This document shows positions 2,477-34,196 of a stretch of 48,301 nucleotides of DNA, in pieces. The notes beneath the pieces are model-generated. The model saw only the letters and a list, made by a program, of their open reading frames with translations, had not been told where the DNA came from and searched no databases. Position 1 is the stretch's first letter. Each line of letters begins with the position of its first letter. The stretch lies in the NCBI GenBank assembly GCA_964414205.1, contig CAYPVP010000003.1, forward strand, positions 1 to 48,301. Direction: 5' to 3'. The position numbers and the translations under genes are program-made. Source of the DNA: an uncultured Bacteroidaceae bacterium (lineage in GTDB: Bacteria > Bacillota > Clostridia > Christensenellales > CAG-917).

Positions 2477-3410
2477 TTTTAAATTCTTCCTTTGAATTGT
2501 ATTTATTTTTATTTTTCATCAACATGTATGCTTCTTTGATTGAAGTCAGTGGAGCAACTAAAACTGCAATCATCAAAAACCATAATGCGAGCAATAATTT
2601 ATGATTTCTTTTGTAGGCAACAGCCAAAACAGCAAAATGACGGCAACGAATATATTTTTTTTGATTGAAGTTTAATTCTTTGAAGAAACTTTTTTTGTAT
2701 TCGTACAACTTTTTTTCGCCAATGATTTTGTTTTTGCCAGTTGAAATTGCTTCGATGTCATATCTGTATGCTTTGATGTTATTTTGCTTCAAATATCCAA
2801 TTTTGCATTCGCTTTTGATGATTTTTGACATCAAATAGAATTCTTGTCCCATACATACATCATCAAAACCATTGATTTGTTGCAAAACGTTTTTTTTGAG
2901 CATAAAAGTTGGAGTTCCCGTTATGTGCTTTTGAAGATGATATTTGAAGAGATAGTCAGTATCAAAACTTTTGATGTCTTCACGACTGCGATAGTCAATC
3001 AGTTTGTTCTTTTCATCAAACAATGACAAATCGGTGAAGGACATATCCAAATTTGCTTCAAGCATACCATTGAGTTGCTCTTCGATTTTGTTTGGCAAAT
3101 ATTCATCATCGTCGTCCAAAAAGGTGATATATTCTCCTTTTGCCACTTCAATGCCTCTGTTTCTAGAATTTGAACCACCAAGATTCTTTTCATTTGCCAA
3201 ATAGACAATTCGAGCATCATTTTGACTTGCGACAAAGTCTTTCAAACCTTGTCTATATTCTAGCAAATCATCTCTGCCGTTGTCGTCCACCAAAACTATT
3301 TCAATGTTTTTGTAGGTTTGTTGTTGAAGAGATTGAATTGCTCTTCCAACCAAATCGATTTTTCGTTTATAAGACGGCATAATAATGCTGACCAAAACAT
3401 TCGTTTTCAT
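2463..3410 (-). CDS. Glycosyltransferase family 2
   Basis: N-terminus VSIIMPSYKR ... VDDNG ... FLDDDDE (DxD) is a GT-A fold signature. There is a C-terminal TM segment. Start moved to ATG 3410 with GGAG upstream; the track start is GTG. Confidence 0.85.
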   Translation of the reverse strand: MKTNVLVSIIMPSYKRKIDLVGRAIQSLQQQTYKNIEIVLVDDNGRDDLLEYRQGLKDFVASQNDARIVYLANEKNLGGSNSRNRGIEVAKGEYITFLDDDDEYLPNKIEEQLNGMLEANLDMSFTDLSLFDEKNKLIDYRSREDIKSFDTDYLFKYHLQKHITGTPTFMLKKNVLQQINGFDDVCMGQEFYLMSKIIKSECKIGYLKQNNIKAYRYDIEAISTGKNKIIGEKKLYEYKKSFFKELNFNQKKYIRCRHFAVLAVAYKRNHKLLLALWFLMIAVLVAPLTSIKEAYMLMKNKNKYNSKEEFKNETI

Positions 3411-3412
3411 AA

Positions 3413-4093
3413 TCACTCCGTTAGAACAACAAACAAGGTTTCAAAAATCAATTTGATGTTGTAACACAACCTCATTTGTTGAATGTATTTCAAGTTTAAT
3501 GCCAATTTTACAGGCATAATTTCTTCTATATAAGATTTTTCTGCATCATCAGAATTTTCCAAAATTTCGTTTTCATTTCTAAATTTGATTGACGCCATAT
3601 CCGTGATTCCAGGTCGCACAAGCAAAACATTTTTTTGTTCTGCATCATACAAGTCAACATATTTTGGAACTTCTGGTCTTGGTCCAACCAAACTCATGTC
3701 GCCAATCAAAACATTGATGAGTTGTGGCAATTCATCAATTTTGGCTTTTCTCAAAAATTTGCCAACACTTGTAATTCGCATATCGTTTGATGTTGAAAGT
3801 TGCAAACCTTTGCTTTCGGCATTTTTCACCATTGTTCTAAACTTCAAAATTTTGAATTGTTTTTCATTTTTGCCAACACGAGTTTGTTTGAAAAACACTT
3901 CTCCCTTGCTGGTTAGTTTTATTGCAATAGCAACAAACAAAAACAGTGGCGACAAAAGCAACAAACCAATTGCACTTGCAAAAATGTCAAACATCCTTAT
4001 GTTAAACAAAGAAAACCATTTTTTTGACAACATTTTTTTGTAGTCAAAGGAAGTTTCTGCGTTTTCTTCAAAAAATTTTTTTTCGTCGCTCAT
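3413..4093 (-). CDS. Small monotopic phosphoglycosyl (sugar-1-phosphate) transferase, PglC/WbaP-C/EpsL family; initiating enzyme
   Basis: 226 aa with a single N-terminal hydrophobic helix. Carries the conserved bacterial sugar transferase block KFRTM ... DELPQLINVLIGDMSLVGPRP. Shows 4-nt ATGA overlap with the upstream gene. Confidence 0.85.
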   Translation of the reverse strand: MSDEKKFFEENAETSFDYKKMLSKKWFSLFNIRMFDIFASAIGLLLLSPLFLFVAIAIKLTSKGEVFFKQTRVGKNEKQFKILKFRTMVKNAESKGLQLSTSNDMRITSVGKFLRKAKIDELPQLINVLIGDMSLVGPRPEVPKYVDLYDAEQKNVLLVRPGITDMASIKFRNENEILENSDDAEKSYIEEIMPVKLALNLKYIQQMRLCYNIKLIFETLFVVLTE

Positions 4094-5292
4094 AAACTTT
4101 TGACAACCTCCACAAAGTTTTTGATGATGAAGTCGACTTCTTCGTCAGTCAAACAAGTGTGAAGTGGCAAAGTGATTTCATTTTTATATCGTGCATATGC
4201 GTTTGGAAAGTTTGCAATGTCAAAGCCCAAATTTTTGTAGGCAGTGTGCATTGGCAATGGCTTGTAGTGAACGTTTGTTGCAATTCCTCGTTTTGCAAGT
4301 TCAATCACAACATCATTTCTTGTTTGTTCATCGGCACCAAGCAGTCTCACCAAAAACAGATGCCCACTGCTTGAAAAATCTTTGCCATAGTGTTTTGGAA
4401 GTTCGACATTCAAGTTTTCAAAGGCTTGATTATATTTTTCAATGATTGCTTTTCTTCTTTTGAGCATTGCGTCATATCGTGAAAGTTGTGCAATGCCAAT
4501 TGATGCCATGATGTCAGTCATGTTGCATTTTTGTCCACACATTTTGATGTCATATTCCCAAGCGCCAATTTGAGTTTTTGCAAGAGCATCTTTTGATTGT
4601 CCATGCAAACTCCACAACATAAATTGCTTGTATATCCACTCATCATCAAAGCCGTTGTCCTGTCTCCAAGTCACGGCTCCACCTTCTGCTGTTGTCAGGT
4701 TTTTGACAGCGTGGAAACTGAAAGATGTGAAATCTCCTGCTTGTCCACTTGAAAGCCCTTTTGAAGTTGCTCCCAAACTGTGTGCACCGTCAGTCAAAAT
4801 CAAAATTCTTGAAAGTTGTTGTTGCAAAATGTTTTCGCTTGCATGAAACAAATTTTGTTTTTTGGCGACAATTTCTCTCAATTTGTCATAGTCGCACATG
4901 ATTCCACCAACATCAACAGGAACAATCACTTTTGTTTTTTCTGTGACAAGGCTTTCAAGTTGGTGGTAGTCAATCTCGTAGTTGTCTTTTTGGCAATCGC
5001 ACAAAACAATTTTTGCACCAACATGTTCAATCACGCTTGCGCTTGCTGAATAGGTGTATGCAGAGGTTATGACTTCGTCACCTTTTCCAACACCAAAAAT
5101 ACGCAAAACCAGTTCTAAACCAGCAGTTGCCGAATTTAGGCACACTGCTTTGCTTGTTCCACAAAACTTTGCTATGTCATTTTCAAATTTTTTGGTTTTT
5201 GGTCCTGTTGTAATCCAACCTGATTTCAAAGTGTCAACAACTTCATCAATTTCGAGTTGTGAGATATCTGGTGGTGAAAAACTGATTTTCAT
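4090..5292 (-). CDS. DegT/DnrJ/EryC1/StrS-family PLP aminotransferase (PglE/EpsN-like sugar 4-aminotransferase)
   Basis: Family-typical N-terminus (SPPDI...E...V.L.SGW.T.GP...FE) and a fold-type I aminotransferase layout. Start moved to ATG 5292 (MKISFSPPD) with GGAG upstream; the track start is TTG. Confidence 0.8.
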   Translation of the reverse strand: MKISFSPPDISQLEIDEVVDTLKSGWITTGPKTKKFENDIAKFCGTSKAVCLNSATAGLELVLRIFGVGKGDEVITSAYTYSASASVIEHVGAKIVLCDCQKDNYEIDYHQLESLVTEKTKVIVPVDVGGIMCDYDKLREIVAKKQNLFHASENILQQQLSRILILTDGAHSLGATSKGLSSGQAGDFTSFSFHAVKNLTTAEGGAVTWRQDNGFDDEWIYKQFMLWSLHGQSKDALAKTQIGAWEYDIKMCGQKCNMTDIMASIGIAQLSRYDAMLKRRKAIIEKYNQAFENLNVELPKHYGKDFSSSGHLFLVRLLGADEQTRNDVVIELAKRGIATNVHYKPLPMHTAYKNLGFDIANFPNAYARYKNEITLPLHTCLTDEEVDFIIKNFVEVVKSL

Positions 5293-12107: not shown

Positions 12108-15100
12108 TTAGGAAAGTCCATATTCGGCACGGTTGATGAGTTCCATTTGCATTTCTTTGTTGCATTGGACAAAATAGGCATTGTAACCTGAAATTCTGAC
12201 CAACAAATCACGATATTCATCAGGGTTTGCCATTGCAGCACGCATAGTTTTGCTTGAAATGACGTTGAATTGCATTTGCATTCCACCCAAATCGCAATAG
12301 GCTTTTGCATATGCAAAAAGGTTGTCAACGGTTTGCTTGTGAGTGTCTTTTGCTGATGGTGTGACTTTGACATTGAATGCAATGTTGTTGTTCAAAGTGT
12401 GTGGGTCTAGTTTTGCAACGGCTGAAAGATTGTCAAGCAAGTTTTTTGATGCAGTTGGTTCTGGTGTGAGTCCAGGTGTGAAAGGCTTTCCTGCCAAACG
12501 ACCTGATGGCAAAGCACCTGTCAAAGTTCCAAAAGCAACGTGGTTTGACATTGACCACCAGCCTGTTGTATATCTTCCACCACGGAAATTTCGTTTTTCC
12601 CACAAATAGTCACTGATGAATTTTGTGACGGAGTTTGCCATTTGTGTGGCTTCTTCGCTTGCTGAACCAAATTGTGCAACTGATTTCATCAAAACTTGTC
12701 GCATGTCTTCAAAGCCAACAAAGTTTGCTTTTATGGCAGTCACAAGTTGTTGCATTGAATATTTTTTGTCTTCAAACACAAGTTTTTTGACTGCAAGAAG
12801 TGAGTCGGTGATGTCGGCAAGTCCAATGCAAGCAATTCCTGATGAATTATATTTTGCACCACCAAGTGTCACATCTTTGCCCTTTTCGATGCAACCTTCA
12901 ACACAACCTGACATCATTGGAGTTGGTCGAATGATGCTGTGCGCTTCGCCCAATTTGTTGTTGTAGTCGATGGAGTAGTCAAGCAAACTGAATGTTTGTT
13001 TTTTGAAGGCATCATAGAATTCTTCAAAAGTCTTGAAGTTTTCAGGGTCACCTGTTTTTGGGCCAAGTGTCCATCTCATCAATGGATGATAGCCGTTGTT
13101 GATTGCCATTTCAAGGCATGCAACAGTGTTGAACATCATGCAGTTTGTGTGTCCGATGTGCTTGCCAGTGATTGTTGGTTCAACGCAACCAGTTGCCGAC
13201 CAGTTGTTGAGTTCATTTTGTGGATAGTGGAAGCCATCAAGAGATTTCATGACGATTTCATCATTGTGAATTGATGGCGTTCCGTGAGTGTTGACATTCA
13301 CTTCGCATAAACGCTTCAAATAGGCAACGCTGTTTTTGGTGTTGTTGAATCTTGCGTTGATGTTTGGGTCACGAAGTCCCAACATTTCGGTGACTTTCAA
13401 AATGATGTAGGTCATGTCGTTGACTGCATCTTCACCATCTTGTGTGACTCCACCAACTGTGATTGCTTGGTTTGCACCTGATGCTCCAAACAAGTGGTTG
13501 CCCATGTCAGGAACAAGTGGTTGGTGGTCGGTCATTGCCATGAACAAGCAACCCATCAAATCTATTGAATGTTTGACAAAGTCGTCTTTTTCTTGTTTTG
13601 TTTTCAATTTGCTGATGCTGTTGGCAAAATATGGTTGCATGAGTTGGTCAAGTCGTCCAATTGAGAAACCAGCATTGAAGTTTTCAAGGTGAACAGCAAT
13701 CCAGTGAATCCAAATGGCTTGCATTGCCTCATCATAGGTTTCAACATTTCCTTTTGCAATTTTTGCACAAATTTTTGCAGTGTTCAAAAGTTCATTTTTT
13801 CTTGTTTCACATGTTTCAGTTTGTGCTTGATTGAATGCCTCTTGTGACAAGTGTTCGGTGTATGCCACAATTCCTTGATAGCAGGCTTTGATGGCGTTCA
13901 AAGTGTTGATTTTTTGAATGTCACTTTTGTTTGTTTTCAAAAGTTCATCTTCGCATTCTTTCACAATTCCAACTGCACCAATTTTCAAAAATTTTTCATG
14001 GTCGATGACTGTGTGTGAAAAAGCCGTTGTCTTCCACAAATAGTTGACTGCAAATCTTTCATCAGTTTTTTGGCAAGTTGGTTCGCCATATTTGTTTCTG
14101 ACATATTCTCTGAAATTGCGATTTAGCCAAAATGGGAACAATTCGCTGTTCACTTTTTTGATTTCTTCATCGGTCATTCGTTTGTATGGTGTATATGGTC
14201 TTGTGTCGGTTGAAAACAGTTCTGCCCAAATTGCAAGAGCAACTGCATCAGGATACATGATGACTCCAATTTCTTTTCCAGTGGTTGTGCCTGCAAGCAA
14301 GTCATTTTTTCTGATGACAGGCTTGTGCTTTTCCATAAGGTTTTTGAACATGAGTCCTTGTCTAAGTGTTGGGTCCCATGCTGTGCCATCGTTTTGTGTT
14401 TCAAAACCATTTTTTTTGTGCCAATCGGTGATGAGTTCAACTCTTTCCAAACAAAATTCAGGCATTTCGTTGAGGTGTCTGTCCAAAAATGGTTTCAAAC
14501 GAGGGAAATCATCAAGTTTGAATTTTGACAAATACTCGTCTTCGCCAATAAATTTCACGCCTTTGTCCACAAAATCGGCAGGCATATATTCTTTTTTGGC
14601 TTTTTTGACTTCATCTGGTTTGATTTCTTCCATGTGAGCATCAACTTGTCTTGATTTTGTAATTTCAGATGAAGACTTTTTCATTTTCTTTGATTGCATA
14701 TCTTTCAAAATGACAGAAATCAAAAAGTTGAAATATTGAATTTTCAAAAGGTTTCCACTTGTAGAAATTTTGTTTTTGAGCAACAACAACATGATTTCGT
14801 TTGGTGGAAGTGATGCCATAAGTTTCAATGCAACAGTGTTTTCGGCAATCAAAATGCACTCTGCTTGGTCAATTCCTTTCAGCACTTTTGCCTTGCCATC
14901 TTTGAAAACAATTGTTTGTGCAACATTTCCGTTTTCGGTGGTGATTCCAACAGACAAATTGTTCCAGCCATTGTCATATCTCAAAAAATCATTATATTTT
15001 TTGATTGTGTTGAAAAGTGTTGCCATTGCTTTCAAAGCAATTCTGACAGTTGTGTCAGCGACGCCTTTTTTTGCATCGGCAAGTTGAAATTTTTGTCCTG

Positions 15101-15131
15101 CAACAAATATCTTTTGTGTTTCTTGTGTCAT
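12108..15131 (-). CDS. Glycyl-radical enzyme (PFL2/dehydratase-eliminase-like) with an N-terminal SCP2-like domain; substrate unknown
   Basis: C-terminal glycyl-radical motif VRISGYNAYF (Gly codon at 12186-12188). Thiyl loop ATGCVEP (Cys codon 13185-13187, Glu two residues on), as in the glycerol/propanediol dehydratase, CutC and HypD class. Residues 1-145 (nt about 14697-15131) read as an SCP2 sterol-carrier fold. A Lys/Glu-rich linker follows before the canonical GRE N-terminus (CLERVELITDWHKK). Confidence 0.9.
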   Translation of the reverse strand: MTQETQKIFVAGQKFQLADAKKGVADTTVRIALKAMATLFNTIKKYNDFLRYDNGWNNLSVGITTENGNVAQTIVFKDGKAKVLKGIDQAECILIAENTVALKLMASLPPNEIMLLLLKNKISTSGNLLKIQYFNFLISVILKDMQSKKMKKSSSEITKSRQVDAHMEEIKPDEVKKAKKEYMPADFVDKGVKFIGEDEYLSKFKLDDFPRLKPFLDRHLNEMPEFCLERVELITDWHKKNGFETQNDGTAWDPTLRQGLMFKNLMEKHKPVIRKNDLLAGTTTGKEIGVIMYPDAVALAIWAELFSTDTRPYTPYKRMTDEEIKKVNSELFPFWLNRNFREYVRNKYGEPTCQKTDERFAVNYLWKTTAFSHTVIDHEKFLKIGAVGIVKECEDELLKTNKSDIQKINTLNAIKACYQGIVAYTEHLSQEAFNQAQTETCETRKNELLNTAKICAKIAKGNVETYDEAMQAIWIHWIAVHLENFNAGFSIGRLDQLMQPYFANSISKLKTKQEKDDFVKHSIDLMGCLFMAMTDHQPLVPDMGNHLFGASGANQAITVGGVTQDGEDAVNDMTYIILKVTEMLGLRDPNINARFNNTKNSVAYLKRLCEVNVNTHGTPSIHNDEIVMKSLDGFHYPQNELNNWSATGCVEPTITGKHIGHTNCMMFNTVACLEMAINNGYHPLMRWTLGPKTGDPENFKTFEEFYDAFKKQTFSLLDYSIDYNNKLGEAHSIIRPTPMMSGCVEGCIEKGKDVTLGGAKYNSSGIACIGLADITDSLLAVKKLVFEDKKYSMQQLVTAIKANFVGFEDMRQVLMKSVAQFGSASEEATQMANSVTKFISDYLWEKRNFRGGRYTTGWWSMSNHVAFGTLTGALPSGRLAGKPFTPGLTPEPTASKNLLDNLSAVAKLDPHTLNNNIAFNVKVTPSAKDTHKQTVDNLFAYAKAYCDLGGMQMQFNVISSKTMRAAMANPDEYRDLLVRISGYNAYFVQCNKEMQMELINRAEYGLS

Positions 15132-15153
15132 AATATCTCCAAATTTTTTGATT

Positions 15154-16080
15154 TTAGTTTAATTGACATGCAAGTTGTATGTTCCTTGATGTAAAAATTT
15201 CGTTCATTTTTTTGAGTTCGACTTGTGTTTGCCAAGTTTTGCCTTCGAGCGTTTTTTCGGGCATGTCAACGCCAATTTTGTCGTTTTTCTTTGTCCAAGT
15301 TGGGTTGTATGGCAACAAATCGGCTTGTTTTATGCCTTGTTCGTTCAAGAAGTTGGCAATTCCAACAAGATTTTCTTGTGTATCGGTTATGTTTGGAATC
15401 AATGGTGTTCGTGGCAACAGTTGCAAGTTGTTTGTTTTTGAAAATTCTGCAAGTCGAGAAAAGTTTTCTTTGATGATTTTGTTTTCAGTTCCACAATATT
15501 TTTTGTGTTGTTCGTTGTCGGCAATTTTCAAATCAAAATATATCATGTCGACATATGGCAACATAAATTTTTCAAAAGTGCCATAGTTGAATGCCCCACA
15601 AGTTTCAAGCAATGTGTGAATGCCATTTTCTTTGCATTTTTTCAGCAATTCTCCAACAAATTCTGGAAAGAGTGTTGCTTCGCCTCCTGAAACAGTGACT
15701 CCTCCACCTGAAACATTGTAAAATGGTTTGTATTGAAGGACTTTTTCAAACAATGCATCAACTGTCCAATCTTCGCCCACTTTTGAAAGTGCTTGTGATG
15801 GACAAACTTTTGTGCATTCAAAACATTTGATACATTTGTTACGGTCAACAAATTTGCTGTTTGCAAATGACAAAGCACCTTTTTTGCAAGTGTTCACACA
15901 TTTTTGACAGCCAATACATTCGTCCTTGTCAAAAGAAAGTTCAGATTCAATGAGTTTGCTTTCAGGGTTGTGACACCAAACACATTTCAAAGGACAGCCC
16001 TTGAAAAATATTGTAGTTCTGATGCCTGGTCCGTCGTCCAGTGAATTTCCTTTTATTTCCAAAACCTTTGGTGCAATCAT
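15154..16080 (-). CDS. Glycyl-radical enzyme activating enzyme (radical SAM, with ferredoxin-like auxiliary cluster insert)
   Basis: CPLKCVWCHNPE (CX3CX2C) near the N-terminus. Two further cluster motifs, CIGCQKCVNTC and CIKCFECTKVCP. GGGAGG RBS. Lies 22 nt upstream of the GRE. Confidence 0.9.
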   Translation of the reverse strand: MIAPKVLEIKGNSLDDGPGIRTTIFFKGCPLKCVWCHNPESKLIESELSFDKDECIGCQKCVNTCKKGALSFANSKFVDRNKCIKCFECTKVCPSQALSKVGEDWTVDALFEKVLQYKPFYNVSGGGVTVSGGEATLFPEFVGELLKKCKENGIHTLLETCGAFNYGTFEKFMLPYVDMIYFDLKIADNEQHKKYCGTENKIIKENFSRLAEFSKTNNLQLLPRTPLIPNITDTQENLVGIANFLNEQGIKQADLLPYNPTWTKKNDKIGVDMPEKTLEGKTWQTQVELKKMNEIFTSRNIQLACQLN

Positions 16081-16508
16081 TTGTGCCTCCCTTTTTTTTG
16101 ATGGTTGACAGTGTCAACGATTTATTCATAAAAAGTATAAGTAAAAATCAATCGATAAAAAAGTATTTATTACAGTTATGAAGTTTATATCATAAAAAAA
16201 CAAAAAGCAACAAAAAATTTACACATTCGATAAAAATTTATCAATTTGTAAAAAGTGTTCAAAAGTTTCTGAACAATTCGTAATTTTTGTTTAGTAATTA
16301 GGTTCAAAAATTCATAGTTATGTAAACATGTTGACATTGTAAAATTTGAACAAATGCAAATTTGAAGTTGAAATTTTTTGGTTTGAAAGCATAATATTTT
16401 TCATCAATATTGACAATGCTACACATTGGACTATAATGAAAACAAAGAAAAATAAATTCAACTTGTTTGCTATTTTTGGCACGAGTTGAAAACTTTAAAG
16501 GAGAAAAA

Positions 16509-17286: not shown

Positions 17287-17472
17287 ATGAACAATATTGT
17301 TGCTGCAATTTGTAGATTTTGAATGTTCAACGACAAGATGGCAGATTGAAAATGATGTTGTCAAGTTGTTGAATGATTGTTAGGTGTGTAGGTTTGCCAA
17401 TTTGTTGAATGGTTTTCAATGCGTAGACTTTTTGCCAAGATGTTGATGTTTTCATCAAACTTTTGACATACT

Positions 17473-17577
17473 TGTCAAAAACTTCATTCGCTTGTGACAA
17501 AAGTTCATTCACGGGTGGCAATGCTTCTCTCACTGGTGACAATACTTTGTTCAATCGTGACAATGCTTCATAAAAAT
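17473..17577. repeat. Five units of an exact 21-nt-period repeat (GTGrCAA...)
   Basis: GTGACAA/GTGGCAA/GTGACAA/GTGACAA begin at 17494, 17515, 17536 and 17557, with a degenerate unit at about 17473. In the minus-strand ORF 17327..17635 they translate as heptads EALSRLN/KVLSPVR/EALPPVN/ELLSQAN. Confidence 0.7.
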
Positions 17578-17591
17578 GCGTTTTGCCTTTG

Positions 17592-20351
17592 TCATTCAGA
17601 GCGAAGTGCCACAACAGGGTCTTTGTTGGCTGCAATGGCTGATGGAATCAAACCAGCGATAAAACTCAAACCAAGGCTTATTCCAATCAAAACAACTGGG
17701 TGCCACCAATAGAATTGCAACAGCCCAACAATTCCAATTTGTTTTTGCAAAATGATGTTTGCAATGAACATGGCAAAATAGGAGAATGCAATCGCCAATA
17801 CACCAGAAATCAACCCAATGATTGAAGATTCAGACAAGAAAACATTGTAGATGTCCGATTTTCGTCCACCAATGCTTCTCAAAACTCCAATCTCTTTTCG
17901 GCGTTCCAAAACAGATGTATAGGTTATGATTCCAATCATGATTGAAGAAACGATGAGTGAAATTGATGAGAACGCAAACAAAGCACGAGTCATCATGTCA
18001 GTCAAAGTGCCAACATAGTTCATCAGCACGGCAAGAGTGTCGGAATATTTGATTGATTGTTTTGTGGTGGAAATTTTTTCATAGCCAGAAAGAAGTGCAA
18101 GAATTTTGTCCTTGTCGGCACATGAATTTGCATAGATTTTGATTGTTTTTGGGTTTGTGAGGTCGGCAACACCATATGATGCCAAACATTTTGCATAGGT
18201 GTTTTCATCTTCTTCACTTGTGCTGAAAGCATTGCCAGTGAAAATGTTGATGTCAGTGTTTTGTTTTTGTGCAACAATCAAAGGGTGCGAATTTGTTCTT
18301 GCAATCATCTTTCTTGTAAAGTCACTTGTATAGCCAATGACACCTTTTATGAGTGTTGCATTGATGTTTTGCTTTGGTCGAACGACTCCAACGACTTTCA
18401 TTGTTTCGCTGTTTTCGTTGATATAGCCAGCATCTTTTGTCATGTCGACAGAATGTTTTGCCCAAGAACCACCATTTTTTTGATAAAAGTAGTCAGAATT
18501 TGCCATGACTTTGTATTCAAGATTTAGCAAATCATCTGCCGAGTAGTCTTTGTTGTAGAAGTCGCCATTTCCAAAAATTGCATCAAGGGCATTGTCGCCT
18601 TCAACCAAACCAAGACAGAACAAAGTGTAGTCATCAATTTGGTTTGATTTGTCGATTTTGACAACAATTTCATTGGCGTTTCTTGGCCAACGGCTGTTGT
18701 TTCCAACCAAGTCATATTGTTTTGTCAGCAAATCTCTGTTGTCAGGAATTTCATCCCAAACACTGAACATTTGCATCATGTTTTCAATTTGAGCAGTCAA
18801 ATCTCCCATGTCACCAATGACATCTTTTATGTCATCAAGAAATGGGTTGATTTTGACATATTTGTTTGTTTTTGTGACGTCGCAATACATTGTGAGTGGT
18901 GCTGCATAGTCATATTCCACAATGCCAAAGTCATCATTGAAATTTTTGTCCAAATATGTTTTGATTTCTTTCATGTCGTTTGGCTTGAAAAGAGTGTCGA
19001 GATATGGTGCAAGGTTGCCCATGATTTTGTTGATGAAAATGTCTTCTGAATTTGGATAGTCAGGTCTGACTTCGGTGTTTGCTTGTTGCAAAATGTCAAT
19101 CAACACTTGAACATCTGCGTTCTTTTCGGAAATTTGCAATGGATAGGTGGCAAGAGCGCTCTCTTCGGTGTTTTTGATGTAGATGTTGACACCTGTTGAA
19201 AGTGCCAAAATCAAGGCAATTCCGATGATGCCAATGCTACTTGCAAAAGATGTCAAAAATGTTCTTGTTTTTTTGGAAATCAAATTGCGTGCCGACAACG
19301 AAACTGCTGTTGACAATTTCATTGACACATTTTTGGCATTTCTTTTTTCTTCTCTTTTTTGTTTGCGTTTTTCTTTGGCAAGCAGTTTTGTTGTTTTAGG
19401 GTCACTTGTTTTTTCGCCAAGATTGTCTGAATCAGCAAGTGCTTCAATGTTTACTTTTTCTTCTGTATTCGCTGTTTCGCTTGCAACGAACTTTTTGCTT
19501 GAATCAACAGTTTCATTAGCAATGACCGTTTCGCTTGCAACTACTGTTTCATTTAAACCTGCTGTTTCGCTTGCAACTACTGTTTCATCTTCAACTTTTT
19601 GGTTTGAACTTGGGGTTTCGCTTGAATTGTCTTTCAAAAAATTTGATTCCAAAACATCTTCTTCTTCAAAGTCATCATATGGCATGCTGTCTTCCAAAAC
19701 AATTCCATCTTTGATTTTGACAACACGAGTTGCATATTGAATTGCAAGGTCATCGTTGTGAGTGACCATGATGACCAAATGGTCTTTTGCAATGTTTGCA
19801 AGCAAGTTCATGACTTGAAGTCCAGATTCACTGTCGAGTGCTCCTGTTGGTTCATCAGCCAAAATTATGGTTGGATTGTTGACAATGGCACGAGCGATTG
19901 CAACTCGTTGCATTTGTCCACCTGAAAGTTGATTTGGTTTTTTGCGAACAAGTTTTCCCAAGCCAACTTTTTCCAATGCTTCAATGGCACGGCTTTTGCA
20001 TTCTTCCTTTGAGTAGCCACCAATTTTTAAAGCGAGTTCAACGTTTCGGCGAATTGAAAGGTGAGGAATCAAATTGTAACTTTGAAAAACAAAACCAATT
20101 TCACGGTTGCGATAGGTGTCCCAATCACGCATTGAAAAATCTTTTGTTGAGCGACCATCAATCACCAAATCGCCACTTGTATATTTGTCGAGTCCTCCAA
20201 GAATGTTTAGCATGGTTGTTTTTCCACAGCCACTAGGGCCGAGAATGGCAACAAATTCATTCTTTCTGAAAGAAATTGAAATGTCATCAAGTGCCGTCAC
20301 CGAACTTTCTTTGGATTCATATTTTTTTGTTATGTGTTTTAATTCAATCAT
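17592..20351 (-). CDS. Fused ABC transporter, MacB/FtsX type: N-terminal ATPase, repeat-containing acidic linker, FtsX-family permease with a large extracytoplasmic domain
   Basis: Walker [10 protein letters not shown], signature [14 protein letters not shown], Walker [13 protein letters not shown]-terminal FtsX block [19 protein letters not shown] plus terminal TM helices. 919 aa. Confidence 0.9.
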
Positions 20352-20432
20352 AATTTTTCCTTGGATTCACAAATTTTTTTTACTTTTTTGTTGTCGAGCA
20401 GAAAAGTATAGAAACTTTAACTACCAAATCAG

Positions 20433-20461
20433 ATTATATACTATGCAAGACGAACATGCAA
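20433..20461 (-). promoter_or_regulatory. Sigma-70-type promoter for the ABC gene: TTGCAT, 17 nt spacer, TATAAT
   Basis: On the minus strand, TTGCAT is the complement of 20456-20461, the spacer is 17 nt, and TATAAT is the complement of 20433-20438. It lies about 80 nt upstream of ATG 20351. The -35 box is part of a direct repeat CTTGCAT-N6-CTTGCAT. Confidence 0.5.
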
Positions 20462-20911
20462 GTATTTTTTTAAATTCCAAAAAATTCGCTTGTTCTCTTG
20501 ATAGAATTGAAAGAATGTTTTGAACAAGGAAATGTTTTCCAACTCATTTTAGAACACTTTTGTGAATCATAGACATAATTAGTGTGTGAAAAAGGTGAAA
20601 AAATATCGATTGCAAAAAAATTACAAGCAAAGAGAAAAACAAACAATAACATAAACAAATGCACAAATAAGAAAGCAAGAACATAAATTTGGACTCAAAA
20701 AATAAGACAAAAAGAACGCAAACAAAAAAGCAAACACAAGCGCAACCAAGAAAGCAAAAATAAGCAAACAAGAACCTAAACAAATACATAAACAAGAAAG
20801 TAAATTAGAACACAAACAAAAACAACATAAAAGCGCAAAAAAGCCCAAAGAAAAAATACAAAAATCAATACATTATAAAACAGAAATAATCACAATAAAA
20901 TCACAAGACAA

Positions 20912-26293: not shown

Positions 26294-26313
26294 TCAATCA
26301 TCTATTTGTTTTG

Positions 26314-26376
26314 CCAATATAATCGAATGATATGGTTTCGAGTCTCTACCAGGCACCGTAAATGCTTGACTATTGG
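26314..26376 (+). promoter_or_regulatory. Purine riboswitch aptamer, guanine/hypoxanthine-specific (C at the specificity position)
   Basis: P1 is CCAAUA/UAUUGG. Conserved UAUAAU, L2 GAUAUGG, J2/3 UCUACC, P3-L3 AGGCACCGUAAAUGCUU, and J3/1 GAC (the C74 equivalent) followed by U. Aligns almost base-for-base with the B. subtilis xpt G-box. Lies upstream of a purine permease. Confidence 0.9.
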
Positions 26377-26417
26377 ACATTGTGTTCTAAAAACAATGGA
26401 ATTTTCCATTTTAGATG

Positions 26418-26487: not shown

Positions 26488-26545
26488 TTTCAAAATTGAC
26501 TCTCACGCAAAACGCAACAAATGAAAAACCGTGGGAGGTATTTTT

Positions 26546-28204
26546 ATGGAAAACAACGAACAAATCGTTGAGCAACAAGAAGAAATTGCAACTGCTCCAA
26601 ACAACAATGGCAAAAAACCATCAAAGTTTGTGAATGCACTTGACAGTTTCTTTCAAATTTCAGCAAACAAGAGTTCATTCCGTGCTGAAACAGTTGGTGG
26701 TCTTACAACATTCTTTGCAATGTGCTACATCTTGATTGTAAACCCAGGTGTTATGACAGGCGAATGGGGTCCAACTCCAATTCATAATGCTGTTTTCATT
26801 GCAACTGCTCTTGGTGCAATCATCGGAACATTGCTCATGGCACTCTACGCAAAAATGCCATTTGCACAAGCACCAGGCATGGGACTCAACGCTTTCTTTA
26901 ATTCAGTTTTCGTTGCAAACGGTGTTGGTTTTGCTGCTGTTAATGCTGGTTCAATTGAAGCATATCAAGGTGGTATGGCTGTTATTTTTGTTGCAGGTCT
27001 TTTGTTTATGCTTTTGTCATTGACAGGACTTCGTGAAAAAATTGCAAAAGCAATGCCTGCATGTTTGAAAACTGCAATCACTGCTGGAATCGGTTTGTTC
27101 ATTGCAAAAATTGGTCTTGGACCAAACGGATTTGGACTTTTGAATGGTGCTGGAAAAGTTGCAAACATGAACTTCTTTACAGGTGGCGCAACATGGTATA
27201 CCTTTGCACCAATTCTTGCTGGACTCATTGGTTTCCTTATGATTGGTTTGCTTTCAAAAACAAAAGCAAGCAAATTCAATGTTATTATTGCAATCATTTC
27301 TTCAACTGCTCTATTCTATTTGTTCAACATTGGAAATAGTGGTGCATACTCTGTATTTACAGGTGGCATTCAAAACCCAATTGATGCTTTCAAAGATTTT
27401 GGCAATTTGGGTATTGGTGCTGCATTCAAGGGCTTCCAATACTGGGATGCAAACATTGCATTGAACCTCGTTTTGCTCATCATCACATTCTGCTTGGTTG
27501 ACATGTTTGATACACTTGGAACACTTCAAGGCGCAGCAACTGAGGCTGACATGCTCGATAGCAAAGGCAACCCAAAAAATCTTGGAAAATGTTTGATGGC
27601 AGACTCAACAGCAACTGTTGTTGGTGGAATTTTCGGAACATCAACTGTCACTACTTTTGTTGAATCGGCTGCTGGTGTTGGTGCTGGTGCAAGAACTGGT
27701 TTCTCTTCACTCATCGTTGCAATTTTGTTCTTTGTTGCAATGTTCCTGTCACCTCTCGCTGCAATCATTCCTGCATGTGCTGTTGGTCCTGCTCTTGTTT
27801 ATGTTGGCGTTTTGATGCTCAAAAACATCATAAATGTTGATTTCAAAGATATGTATTCTGCAATTCCTGCATTCCTTACAGTCATTGTCATGCCTTTGGC
27901 AGGTTCAATTTCTGATGGTATCGGTGTTGGTATGATTGCTTACATGTTCATGAACATCATCAAAGTTCTTTTCTCAAAATATATTGATAGAAAAGCATAT
28001 TTCTCAACTGCAAACATGGTTGAAGGATACAAACAAATTCCTACCAAGTTCAAGAATTTTGCTGCAAAATTCAAGAAAGGTGCAGAAATTGTTGAAATTC
28101 CTGAAATTGAAGATGAAAATGTTGGTGCATTCTGGTCAAAAGATTTGATTATTTATGGTGTTGCAATTCTCTTCATTCTTCGTTTCTTTATGGTTACAAT
28201 GTAA
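26546..28204 (+). CDS. NCS2/AzgA-family purine permease (guanine/hypoxanthine/adenine; PbuG/PbuO-like) with a long C-terminal extension
   Basis: Family-typical N-terminus (FRAETVGGLTTFFAMCYILIVNP) and about 12 or more TM segments. Start at ATG 26546 after GGGAGG. Sits downstream of the guanine riboswitch. Confidence 0.85.
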   Translation: MENNEQIVEQQEEIATAPNNNGKKPSKFVNALDSFFQISANKSSFRAETVGGLTTFFAMCYILIVNPGVMTGEWGPTPIHNAVFIATALGAIIGTLLMALYAKMPFAQAPGMGLNAFFNSVFVANGVGFAAVNAGSIEAYQGGMAVIFVAGLLFMLLSLTGLREKIAKAMPACLKTAITAGIGLFIAKIGLGPNGFGLLNGAGKVANMNFFTGGATWYTFAPILAGLIGFLMIGLLSKTKASKFNVIIAIISSTALFYLFNIGNSGAYSVFTGGIQNPIDAFKDFGNLGIGAAFKGFQYWDANIALNLVLLIITFCLVDMFDTLGTLQGAATEADMLDSKGNPKNLGKCLMADSTATVVGGIFGTSTVTTFVESAAGVGAGARTGFSSLIVAILFFVAMFLSPLAAIIPACAVGPALVYVGVLMLKNIINVDFKDMYSAIPAFLTVIVMPLAGSISDGIGVGMIAYMFMNIIKVLFSKYIDRKAYFSTANMVEGYKQIPTKFKNFAAKFKKGAEIVEIPEIEDENVGAFWSKDLIIYGVAILFILRFFMVTM

Positions 28205-34122: not shown

Positions 34123-34196
34123 TGGGATATGGTGTAGTGGTAGCACAAAGGTCTCTGACTCCTTTGGTGTAGGTTCGATTCCTATTATCCCTGCCA
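34123..34196 (+). tRNA. tRNA-Gln (anticodon CUG), genomically encoded CCA
   Basis: 74-nt cloverleaf folded by hand. Acceptor TGGGATA/TATCCCT, D arm GTGT-AGTGGTA-GCAC, anticodon loop CTCTGAC, T arm GTAGG-TTCGATT-CCTAT, discriminator G plus CCA. Positions 1/72 are U/U and 31/39 are U/U. Confidence 0.8.

Follow-up and report, generated by a model that had tools for sequence, protein, structure and literature searches.

The 48,301-nucleotide stretch of DNA analysed here (hereafter the window; contig CAYPVP010000003.1 of assembly GCA_964414205.1) encodes a glycyl radical enzyme (GRE) of 1007 residues that carries an SCP2-fold module at its N-terminus, together with an activase. The protein was found to belong to a large, phylogenetically broad and uncharacterised GRE clade marked by an SCP2-fold partner, either fused to the enzyme or present as a small subunit. 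On balance, we favour the view that it is a radical 1,2-eliminase converting a hydrophobic alcohol or diol to an aldehyde, with the SCP2 module acting as a substrate-handling unit. GRE eliminases form a fast-growing class with relevance to health (trimethylamine, H2S and collagen breakdown) and to biotechnology, and to our knowledge the characterised members all use small soluble substrates and lack a lipid-carrier module. Eliminases of this kind are already known; the SCP2-fold accessory is new to the literature we searched and to the comprehensive 2026 GRE review, which describes neither an SCP2-linked nor a lipid-linked member (Imrich et al., PMC13450708). An earlier note on the same DNA had likewise held that characterised GREs have no SCP2 module, and the review mentions none. 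A paper on a limonene GRE was set aside as unrelated, since it concerns a fumarate-adding enzyme.

The Pfam PFL-like family (PF02901) matches residues 219-868 of the protein with an E-value of 2e-157, and Gly_radical (PF01228) matches residues 885-988 with an E-value of 4e-22. With a PFL-like barrel, an RISGY motif, a catalytic Cys and an activase nearby, the protein is a member of the GRE superfamily. The GCVEP and RISGY loops, given as GRE hallmarks in the earlier note, were located in this very protein, and the boundaries of its open reading frame (ORF) were reproduced exactly. The activase and GRE ORFs lie on the minus strand, separated by a gap of 22 nt, and form an intact operon of two genes with the activase first (Table 1). 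The activase matches Pfam Radical_SAM and two copies of Fer4, and with 289 bits it exceeds the 174-bit cut-off of TIGR02494, the NCBIfam model for glycyl-radical activases. It contains the CX3CX2C cluster motif, in the form CPLKCVWC, as well as two ferredoxin-type auxiliary motifs (CxxCxxCxxxC), just as had been described before. No named activase equivalog was reached in the NCBIfam scan.

As judged from its sequence, the catalytic domain belongs to none of the characterised GRE families, in keeping with the description of the protein as an orphan in the earlier note. All NCBIfam equivalog models scored below 45% of their cut-offs, with 424 of 1100 bits for HypD, 406 of 1050 for CutC, 368 of 1000 for HpsG, 368 of 1109 for the PflD-type model and 362 bits for HpfG (cut-off 1000). 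The PFL2-3 subfamily model TIGR01774 was also missed, at 494 versus 678 bits. Identity to any solved GRE did not exceed ~28%, the best bit score being 377 for Archaeoglobus fulgidus PFL2 (PDB code 2F3O). A full-length AlphaFold model was obtained with a mean confidence (pLDDT) of 84 and a predicted template modelling score (pTM) of 0.89. When compared with known structures using Foldseek, this model is closest to glycerol dehydratase (GD, 1r8w), propanediol dehydratase (PD, 5i2g and 9rco), A. fulgidus PFL2, CutC, HypD and HpyG, with TM scores of 0.88-0.91 at 26-28% identity. The X-succinate synthases BSS and MASS gave TM scores of 0.79-0.83. IslA, IseG and HpsG (TM 0.82-0.86) are among the lowest of the eliminases in both sequence score and TM.

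Active-site residues were mapped by pairwise HMMER alignments to GD, HypD and PD, and their conservation was scored over 120 relatives. C649 aligns with GD C433 and HypD C434, E651 with GD E435, and H373 with GD H164; all three positions are invariant, as is the glycyl residue G982. C649 would be the H-atom abstractor and E651 the general base of a CXE motif. The CXE motif is kept in all eliminases, and His164 of GD protonates the leaving hydroxyl (PMC13450708). The invariant CXE, H373 and the Foldseek ranking together suggest that the enzyme is most fittingly grouped with the dehydratase-type 1,2-eliminases that cleave C-O bonds, which accords with the eliminase class proposed in the earlier note. 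The X-succinate synthases differ in these respects: CXE is present in the window protein, their small-subunit genes were not seen in the neighbourhoods, and the Foldseek TM to them is lower.

The remaining barrel residues of interest are N486-A487-G488-F489-S490, N554, H661-T662-N663-C664-M665-M666 and W859, and they differ from the substrate-binding set of GD (H281, S282, Y339, D447 and Y640), which is not kept. GD H281-S282, in the loop that holds D278 of HypD and D216 of CutC, corresponds to A487-G488, GD D447 to N663 and GD Y640 to W859, with each replacement invariant in the family. The acidic amine-binding residue of CutC and HypD is likewise not kept, with Ala487 aligned there. Replacement of both the GD His-Ser pair and the amine-binding Asp by an invariant Ala-Gly is compatible with a roomier site, and the pocket is distinctive and probably more spacious. 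Position 554, equivalent to GD Y339, is Asp in 117 of the 120 relatives, whereas the window protein and the two sequences closest to it have Asn. The surrounding loop 552-554 (codons ~13470-13478) reads S-G/S-A-N in the window protein, P0002 and P0003, and S-S-S-D in the other 117, which makes it a possible specificity switch inside the family. The pocket-lining loop at residues 550-553 has a low pLDDT in the model. Two divergent family members, P0198 (1007 residues) and P0208 (984 residues), keep the SCP2-like module and the PFL-like barrel; the GCVEP Cys loop is absent from both, and the glycyl motifs are altered (VRVGACCARF and VRSAGAGALF). These proteins may be inactive paralogues or aminoacyl-radical (Ala) variants, the latter being mentioned in the 2026 review (PMC13450708).

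Residues ~22-127 are predicted to form a real SCP2-fold domain. The Pfam SCP2 family PF02036 reached 19.5 bits on the window protein (gathering score 21.3, E 1.3e-3, residues 63-135), and an E-value below 0.01 was seen for 2 of 24 family members (best 1.4e-5). In a profile search against PDB sequences, SCP2 chains were the sole recurring family, at an E-value of ~0.5. Because these sequence signals stay sub-threshold, the assignment of the fold rests on structure prediction and on profile-profile links. AlphaFold prediction of the N-terminal region from a 24-sequence alignment gave pLDDT values of 85-97 over residues 21-160. The model has the element order helix-helix, four strands, helix-helix, strand, long helix, with a four- to five-stranded sheet after the two N-terminal helices. 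The top ~45 Foldseek matches of the module in the PDB are all of SCP2 fold, with target-normalised TM scores of 0.6-0.66. The best is UbiJ-SCP2 (E 2.4e-6, TM 0.61-0.66), and others include yeast, human, insect and archaeal SCP2, the SCP2L domain of MFE-2 and the corresponding domains of two alkylsulfatases, SdsA1 and Pisa1. Binding of lipid by the module is suggested by analogy with such proteins. The N-terminal SCP2 pattern that had been picked out by eye is therefore marginal by sequence and clear from the predicted fold. Positions W56, T65, V70, F76, G79, P109, P110, E112, G126 and F134 are invariant across the family. The region behind the module, previously described as a Lys/Glu linker, is indeed present, although most of it is predicted to be one long Lys/Gln/Glu-rich helix (residues 128-165) followed by a low-confidence segment (~166-185). 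A conserved D189-x-G-V motif (D189, G191 and V192) leads from there into the GRE barrel. The earlier note had named beforehand two outcomes that would speak against its proposal, namely an N-terminal region without SCP2 fold and a place inside a characterised GRE family, and neither was found.

The fused architecture is widespread. All 120 of the 120 best database matches carry the extension, with lengths of 964-1009 residues, 96-99% of the query aligned and 54-77% identity. The family comprises at least 120 clusters, and identity across these and the MAG species described next is put at 55-60%. A profile scan of GTDB species representatives yielded 72 loci, all in metagenome-assembled genomes (MAGs). 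The term orphan, applied to the protein in the earlier note, is therefore apt insofar as no function has been assigned; it does not hold in the sense of a one-off, given the clusters, the 72 MAG species and a split version described below. The fusion occurs in Lachnospiraceae, Oscillospiraceae, Anaerovoracaceae/Mogibacterium, Syntrophomonadaceae and Tepidimicrobium, and further lineages are Smithella, Syntrophaceae, Desulfomonilia, Spirochaetota and Actinomycetota. Guts of ruminants and other animals, biogas reactors, peat and fen were the sampled habitats. Near-identical loci for a 988-residue SCP2-GRE (L024, L028 and L031) were binned as Phascolarctobacterium succinatutens, Collinsella aerofaciens and Escherichia coli, most likely through mis-binning of one uncultured gut organism rather than horizontal spread. 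In a delta proteobacterium MAG (L065, CAVVYZ010000015.1) the family GRE is split over about five consecutive ORFs, representing either a pseudogene or frameshift errors of a long-read assembly. An Anaerovoracaceae MAG (L008/L042, JBGUKU010000101.1) contains a second GRE of 790 residues with its own activase at ~17318-20604, 5 kb downstream of the SCP2-GRE operon, and an Fe-S aldo-keto reductase (AKR) and a DUF218 gene are located between the two GREs.

An exhaustive hidden Markov model search with the module across 1.84 billion representative proteins returned 206 matches. Every match of at least 400 residues that was examined consists of the module followed by a PFL-like domain, and the module hence looks GRE-specific. 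Weaker matches of 145-215 residues were first suspected to be noise, as they have no Pfam matches. This suspicion was overturned by genomic context and by profile-profile comparison: the short proteins form a coherent standalone family of at least 816 clusters, whose cultured members are named 'SCP2 domain-containing protein' in UniRef, and hhalign relates the family to the fused module with a probability of 99.3% (E 3.8e-20). In every context examined (L083, L081/L082, Desulfosarcina ovata AP021879.1, Desulfolithobacter dissulfuricans AP024233.1 and L088), the standalone gene of ~150 codons sits between a GRE of 817-830 residues and its activase; in D. ovata, the trio occupies positions 3,958,913-3,962,786. 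The unfused GRE of L083 is the closest relative of the window protein outside its own family (33% identity, 512 bits), and the split-clade enzyme has the catalytic framework in common with the window protein while its pocket positions differ. The occurrence of fused and split forms provides independent evidence that the SCP2-like protein works together with the GRE. Since the split version is present in the cultured and fully sequenced D. ovata and D. dissulfuricans, the hypothesis is testable now.

DUF6765 is usually encoded downstream of the activase in the split loci and possibly represents an additional part of this system. It follows the GRE-SCP2-activase trio at L086:11391-12449, L087:13419-14390 and L088:12131-13102, which cover both cultured Desulfobacterota genomes and a metagenomic contig. 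In L083 (GCA_054041115.1), an 808-residue ORF without a Pfam or NCBIfam match lies directly upstream of the split-system GRE (2793-5219, plus strand).

To survey gene neighbourhoods, ORFs were called in 71 loci of the fused family and the neighbours clustered, following a first pass over 68 loci in which the activase was found within 3 genes of the GRE in 49. A tungsten-type aldehyde:ferredoxin oxidoreductase (AOR) occurs in 18 loci, always at most 3 genes from the GRE, and a TetR regulator in 19, always at most 2 genes away. A polyferredoxin and an AMP-forming ligase, nearest to fatty-acid-CoA ligase families, were each found in 14 loci, and a long FadE-type acyl-CoA dehydrogenase (ACAD) in 9. 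An Fe-S AKR lies directly downstream of the GRE in 4 loci and an Fe-alcohol dehydrogenase (Fe-ADH) in 2, one of them that of P0003, the nearest relative of the window protein for which context is available. Taken together, an aldehyde-handling enzyme (AOR, Fe-ADH or AKR) is located at most 3 genes away in 23 of 71 loci, or 21 of the 51 loci having at least 3 genes on each side. At least four gene orders over two phyla place such enzymes by the GRE: Fer4<AOR< / TetR>GRE in Thermodesulfobacteriota, and GRE>FeADH-Fer4>AOR, GRE>AOR or GRE>AKR in Bacillota. This difference in order between phyla suggests functional coupling rather than inherited synteny. The simplest reading of the neighbourhoods is that the product of the GRE is an aldehyde, subsequently either oxidised to an acid for CoA activation and beta-oxidation or reduced to an alcohol. 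Such a product would be fatty-acid-like, in line with a lipid-carrier module. The earlier remark that context gives no clue to the substrate is accurate for the window itself and does not extend to the relatives, where AOR, Fe-ADH, AKR, TetR, fatty-acid-CoA ligase and ACAD provide one. A thioredoxin-2 gene (8 loci, within 3 genes) and a gene for an EEP phosphoesterase (5-6 loci) were also noted. One or both recur between the GRE/activase pair and the fatty-acid-CoA ligase in the Thermodesulfobacteriota loci L005, L050-L052, L055, L057, L059, L062, L063 and L067. A simple pathway of elimination and oxidation accounts for neither gene. Conceivably, the EEP enzyme liberates the actual substrate from the head group of a phospholipid.

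By homology with characterised eliminases, the activase would generate a radical on Gly982 with the help of S-adenosylmethionine and a [4Fe-4S] cluster, and this radical would be transferred to Cys649. The resulting thiyl radical would take a hydrogen atom from the carbinol carbon of the substrate, and deprotonation of that hydroxyl by Glu651 would give a ketyl radical. His373 is expected to protonate the leaving group on the neighbouring carbon, an OH or possibly an OR, followed by loss of this group and return of a hydrogen atom from Cys649 to yield the aldehyde. The SCP2-fold module, by analogy with SdsA1, Pisa1 and UbiJ, may hold the apolar portion of an alcohol or diol that is poorly soluble or resides in the membrane, and pass this substrate on to the barrel. 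If the gene context of the relatives (as opposed to that of the window) is a guide, the aldehyde would be oxidised by the tungsten-type AOR and the acid would enter beta-oxidation via the fatty-acid-CoA ligase and ACAD. Alternatively, the aldehyde might be reduced by the Fe-ADH or Fe-S AKR, and expression would be under control of the TetR repressor. Candidate substrates are long-chain 1,2-diols, alkyl- and acyl-glycerols and other ether lipids, sphingoid amino-alcohols, and alcohol ethoxylates. For a sphingoid amino-alcohol, Asp554 of the majority could bind the amine. In the case of a polyethylene glycol (PEG) or ethoxylate lyase, the names Pelobacter, Syntrophotalea and Acetobacterium were absent among the 72 genome matches, and ethoxylate is for this reason kept as one candidate of several. 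Our literature searches on glycyl radical combined with polyethylene glycol or ether, on anaerobic PEG acetaldehyde lyase, and on glycyl radical combined with AOR and Smithella found nothing relevant.

Several observations weigh against an aldehyde-forming eliminase with a substrate-handling module, or against its extension to the window protein. About two thirds of the loci, including the window, have no aldehyde-handling neighbour, and since near-duplicate contigs and Thermodesulfobacteriota genomes with strong synteny were counted, independent events are fewer than the raw numbers. As Asn554 sets the window protein and its two closest relatives apart from the Asp of 117/120, the window protein might act on a different substrate than most of the family; with its N554/SGAN pocket and with neither TetR nor aldehyde-enzyme neighbours, it may deviate from them in both exact substrate and regulation. 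The thioredoxin-2 gene in 8 loci is left unexplained by a redox-neutral elimination. In addition, SCP2 folds are not always lipid binders, as Foldseek also matches the module to structural SCP2-like domains of Eis-type acetyltransferases. Such purely structural roles lend substance to the main alternative, to which we give some weight without thinking it probable: that the module is a structural or regulatory accessory (a barrel stabiliser, channel gate or docking aid for the activase), comparable to the beta and gamma subunits of benzylsuccinate synthase or the HPAD gamma subunit, of an enzyme with a small soluble substrate. The split-clade gene between GRE and activase resembles that of a stoichiometric small subunit, the most conserved motif of the module, LPPNE, is more suggestive of an interface than of a cavity lining, and the full-length pTM suggests fixed packing of the module on the barrel. 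Known GRE small subunits do gate substrate channels (PMC13450708); however, they are Fe-S or rubredoxin-like rather than of SCP2 fold. Moreover, the structures that match the fold best belong to genuine ligand-binding SCP2 proteins (UbiJ, SCP2, MFE-2 SCP2L and the alkylsulfatases), and a long-chain product is indicated by the fatty-acid-CoA ligase and ACAD genes that recur nearby.

The thioredoxin-2 gene, within 3 genes of the GRE, also bears on a net reduction, in which the enzyme would carry out radical dehydroxylation with an external thiol reductant, as class III ribonucleotide reductase does. We take the invariant Cys664-Met665-Met666, adjoining pocket residue N663, to recall the Cys/Met pair of that reductase. 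We nevertheless give net reduction very little credence: the thioredoxin gene runs in the opposite direction and is restricted to a single syntenic lineage, aldehyde-handling partners are both more frequent and phylogenetically wider, and the barrel is PFL-like and eliminase-like rather than reductase-like. It is similarly very unlikely that the protein is a hydrocarbon-activating GRE of the X-succinate-synthase type, with the module delivering alkanes or terpenes. The function of its best PDB sequence match, A. fulgidus PFL2, is debated between dehydratase and alkylsuccinate synthase, the family occurs in Smithella, Syntrophaceae and Desulfomonilia, and CoA ligase and ACAD are found among the neighbours. 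Yet the invariant CXE and GD-type His are hallmarks of eliminases, the structural match to BSS and MASS falls below that to eliminases, and the neighbourhoods showed no genes for beta, gamma or delta small subunits. Fumarate addition would furthermore leave the AOR, Fe-ADH and AKR neighbours unexplained, and many family members come from Bacillota of the rumen and gut, which are not known as hydrocarbon degraders. Finally, long N-terminal extensions exist in some CutC enzymes (9f3w, 1150 residues), and for some CutC and PD extensions a role in targeting or encapsulation, in a microcompartment or other assembly, has been proposed. Microcompartments are indeed common for aldehyde-producing GRE eliminases (PMC13450708). 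Here, this role appears hardly conceivable, because the module is a folded 105-residue SCP2 domain and not an amphipathic targeting helix. A tblastn search of 89 loci (1.41 Mb) with a set of seed sequences found no shell-protein homologue, nor were shell-protein families found in the precomputed Pfam lists of the look-up loci, and microcompartment targeting was rejected on the ground that shell genes were not found.

Returning to radical elimination on a hydrophobic alcohol or diol, a narrower and bolder form can be put forward tentatively, although we think it rather unlikely to hold in full: fused and split SCP2-GREs may be the missing anaerobic enzymes that attack membrane- and surfactant-type lipids by radical 1,2-elimination. 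The substrates would offer a free carbinol beside a C-O(R) bond, as do alkylglycerols, archaeol-type diethers, long-chain 1,2-diols and alcohol ethoxylates. Ether cleavage or diol dehydration would lead to a fatty or alkoxy-aldehyde, to be passed to the tungsten AOR and on to beta-oxidation. Were this lipid chemistry confirmed, the enzyme would be the first GRE working on a lipid and its module the first GRE accessory acting as a lipid carrier, and it could explain ether-lipid and ethoxylate breakdown in the methanogenic rumen, digesters and peat. More generally, the preferred function, if confirmed, would extend glycyl-radical chemistry to lipids or amphiphiles, introduce a new type of GRE accessory subunit, and supply a candidate enzyme for anaerobic routes such as the cleavage of ether lipids, long-chain diols or ethoxylates.

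The features of the operon are collected in Table 1. No riboswitch or other RNA element was found near the operon in an Rfam scan. As the earlier note had stated, a GGDEF gene and a DUF308 gene flank the operon. The neighbours on one side are genes for GGDEF, a 4HBT thioesterase, an FprA-like flavodiiron protein, a Crp/Fnr regulator and thioredoxin, and those on the other side encode DUF308 and a MacB-like ABC-FtsX protein; none of them provides a functional hint. The GC content of the window is 31-40%. A perfect 12/12 sigma-70 consensus promoter, TTGACA-16-TATAAT, lies at 16410-16437 on the plus strand, between the divergent DUF308 and activase genes and ~30 nt upstream of the former. Elsewhere in the window, a purine riboswitch (Rfam RF00167, 66 bits) was located at 26295-26392 (plus strand) upstream of a 557-residue ORF (26531-28204), presumably a purine or xanthine transporter, and a tRNA gene (RF00005, 60.7 bits) at 34123-34193 (plus strand).

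Table 1. Features of the SCP2-GRE operon, in window coordinates.
Feature	Position	Strand	Basis
Promoter-like site TTGATA-17-TAAATT, 136 nt upstream of activase start	16216..16244	-	consensus match only
GRE-activating enzyme, radical SAM, 308 residues, first operon gene	15154..16080	-	ORF call, Pfam/NCBIfam
SCP2-GRE fusion protein, 1007 residues, intact	12108..15131	-	ORF call, Pfam, AlphaFold
SCP2-like module (predicted), residues 22-127	14751..15068	-	AlphaFold, Foldseek, hhalign, conservation
Connector, residues 128-198	14538..14750	-	predicted secondary structure, pLDDT, conservation
PFL-like ten-stranded barrel with active site, residues 219-868	12528..14477	-	Pfam, residue mapping
H373 codon	14013-14015	-	residue mapping to GD H164
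Thiyl (Cys) loop GCVEP, residues 648-652	13176..13190	-	verified by translation
Glycyl radical domain, residues 885-988	12168..12479	-	PF01228
RISGY motif holding G982	12183..12197	-	verified by translation
Weak terminator-like hairpin, 12 nt past GRE stop codon	12081..12096	-	consensus match only

A comparison with known systems places the window protein nearest to GD (1R8W/1R9D) and PD (5I2G/9RCO). It resembles these in the barrel fold (TM 0.89-0.90), the glycyl and thiyl loops, the CXE base (E651, GD E435) and the leaving-group acid (H373, GD H164), as well as in an activase with two auxiliary clusters and in the aldehyde product implied by the neighbours of its relatives. In contrast, it is only 27-28% identical to them, has a different pocket (A487-G488, N663, D/N554 and W859), carries ~200 extra N-terminal residues with the SCP2-fold module, and is encoded outside any microcompartment context. 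The best-scoring solved GRE by sequence, A. fulgidus PFL2, keeps GCVE and, unlike the window protein, has no SCP2 module; at ~28% identity and 377 bits it is more distant than the unfused L083 enzyme with its 512 bits. For the module itself, the closest counterparts are the SCP2 domains of SdsA1 (2CFU), Pisa1 (2YHE) and UbiJ (6H6O), which match its fold with Foldseek E-values of 2e-6 to 5e-4 at a probability of 1.0. In those proteins the domain serves as an accessory for hydrophobic or amphiphilic substrates, namely SDS and secondary alkyl sulfates, or polyprenyl quinone intermediates. They are only 12-18% identical to the module, whose partner is a radical enzyme and not a metallo-hydrolase or quinone-biosynthesis complex. 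The SCP2-like protein of the sister clade, being encoded by a small gene inside a GRE-activase operon, recalls the beta and gamma subunits of BSS, the beta, gamma and delta subunits of MASS, and the gamma subunit of HPAD. In GREs with hydrophobic substrates, the known beta subunits are positioned above the substrate channel, and known small subunits, all Fe-S or rubredoxin-like, occur on decarboxylases and X-succinate synthases, with none of SCP2 fold and none on an eliminase-class GRE (PMC13450708).

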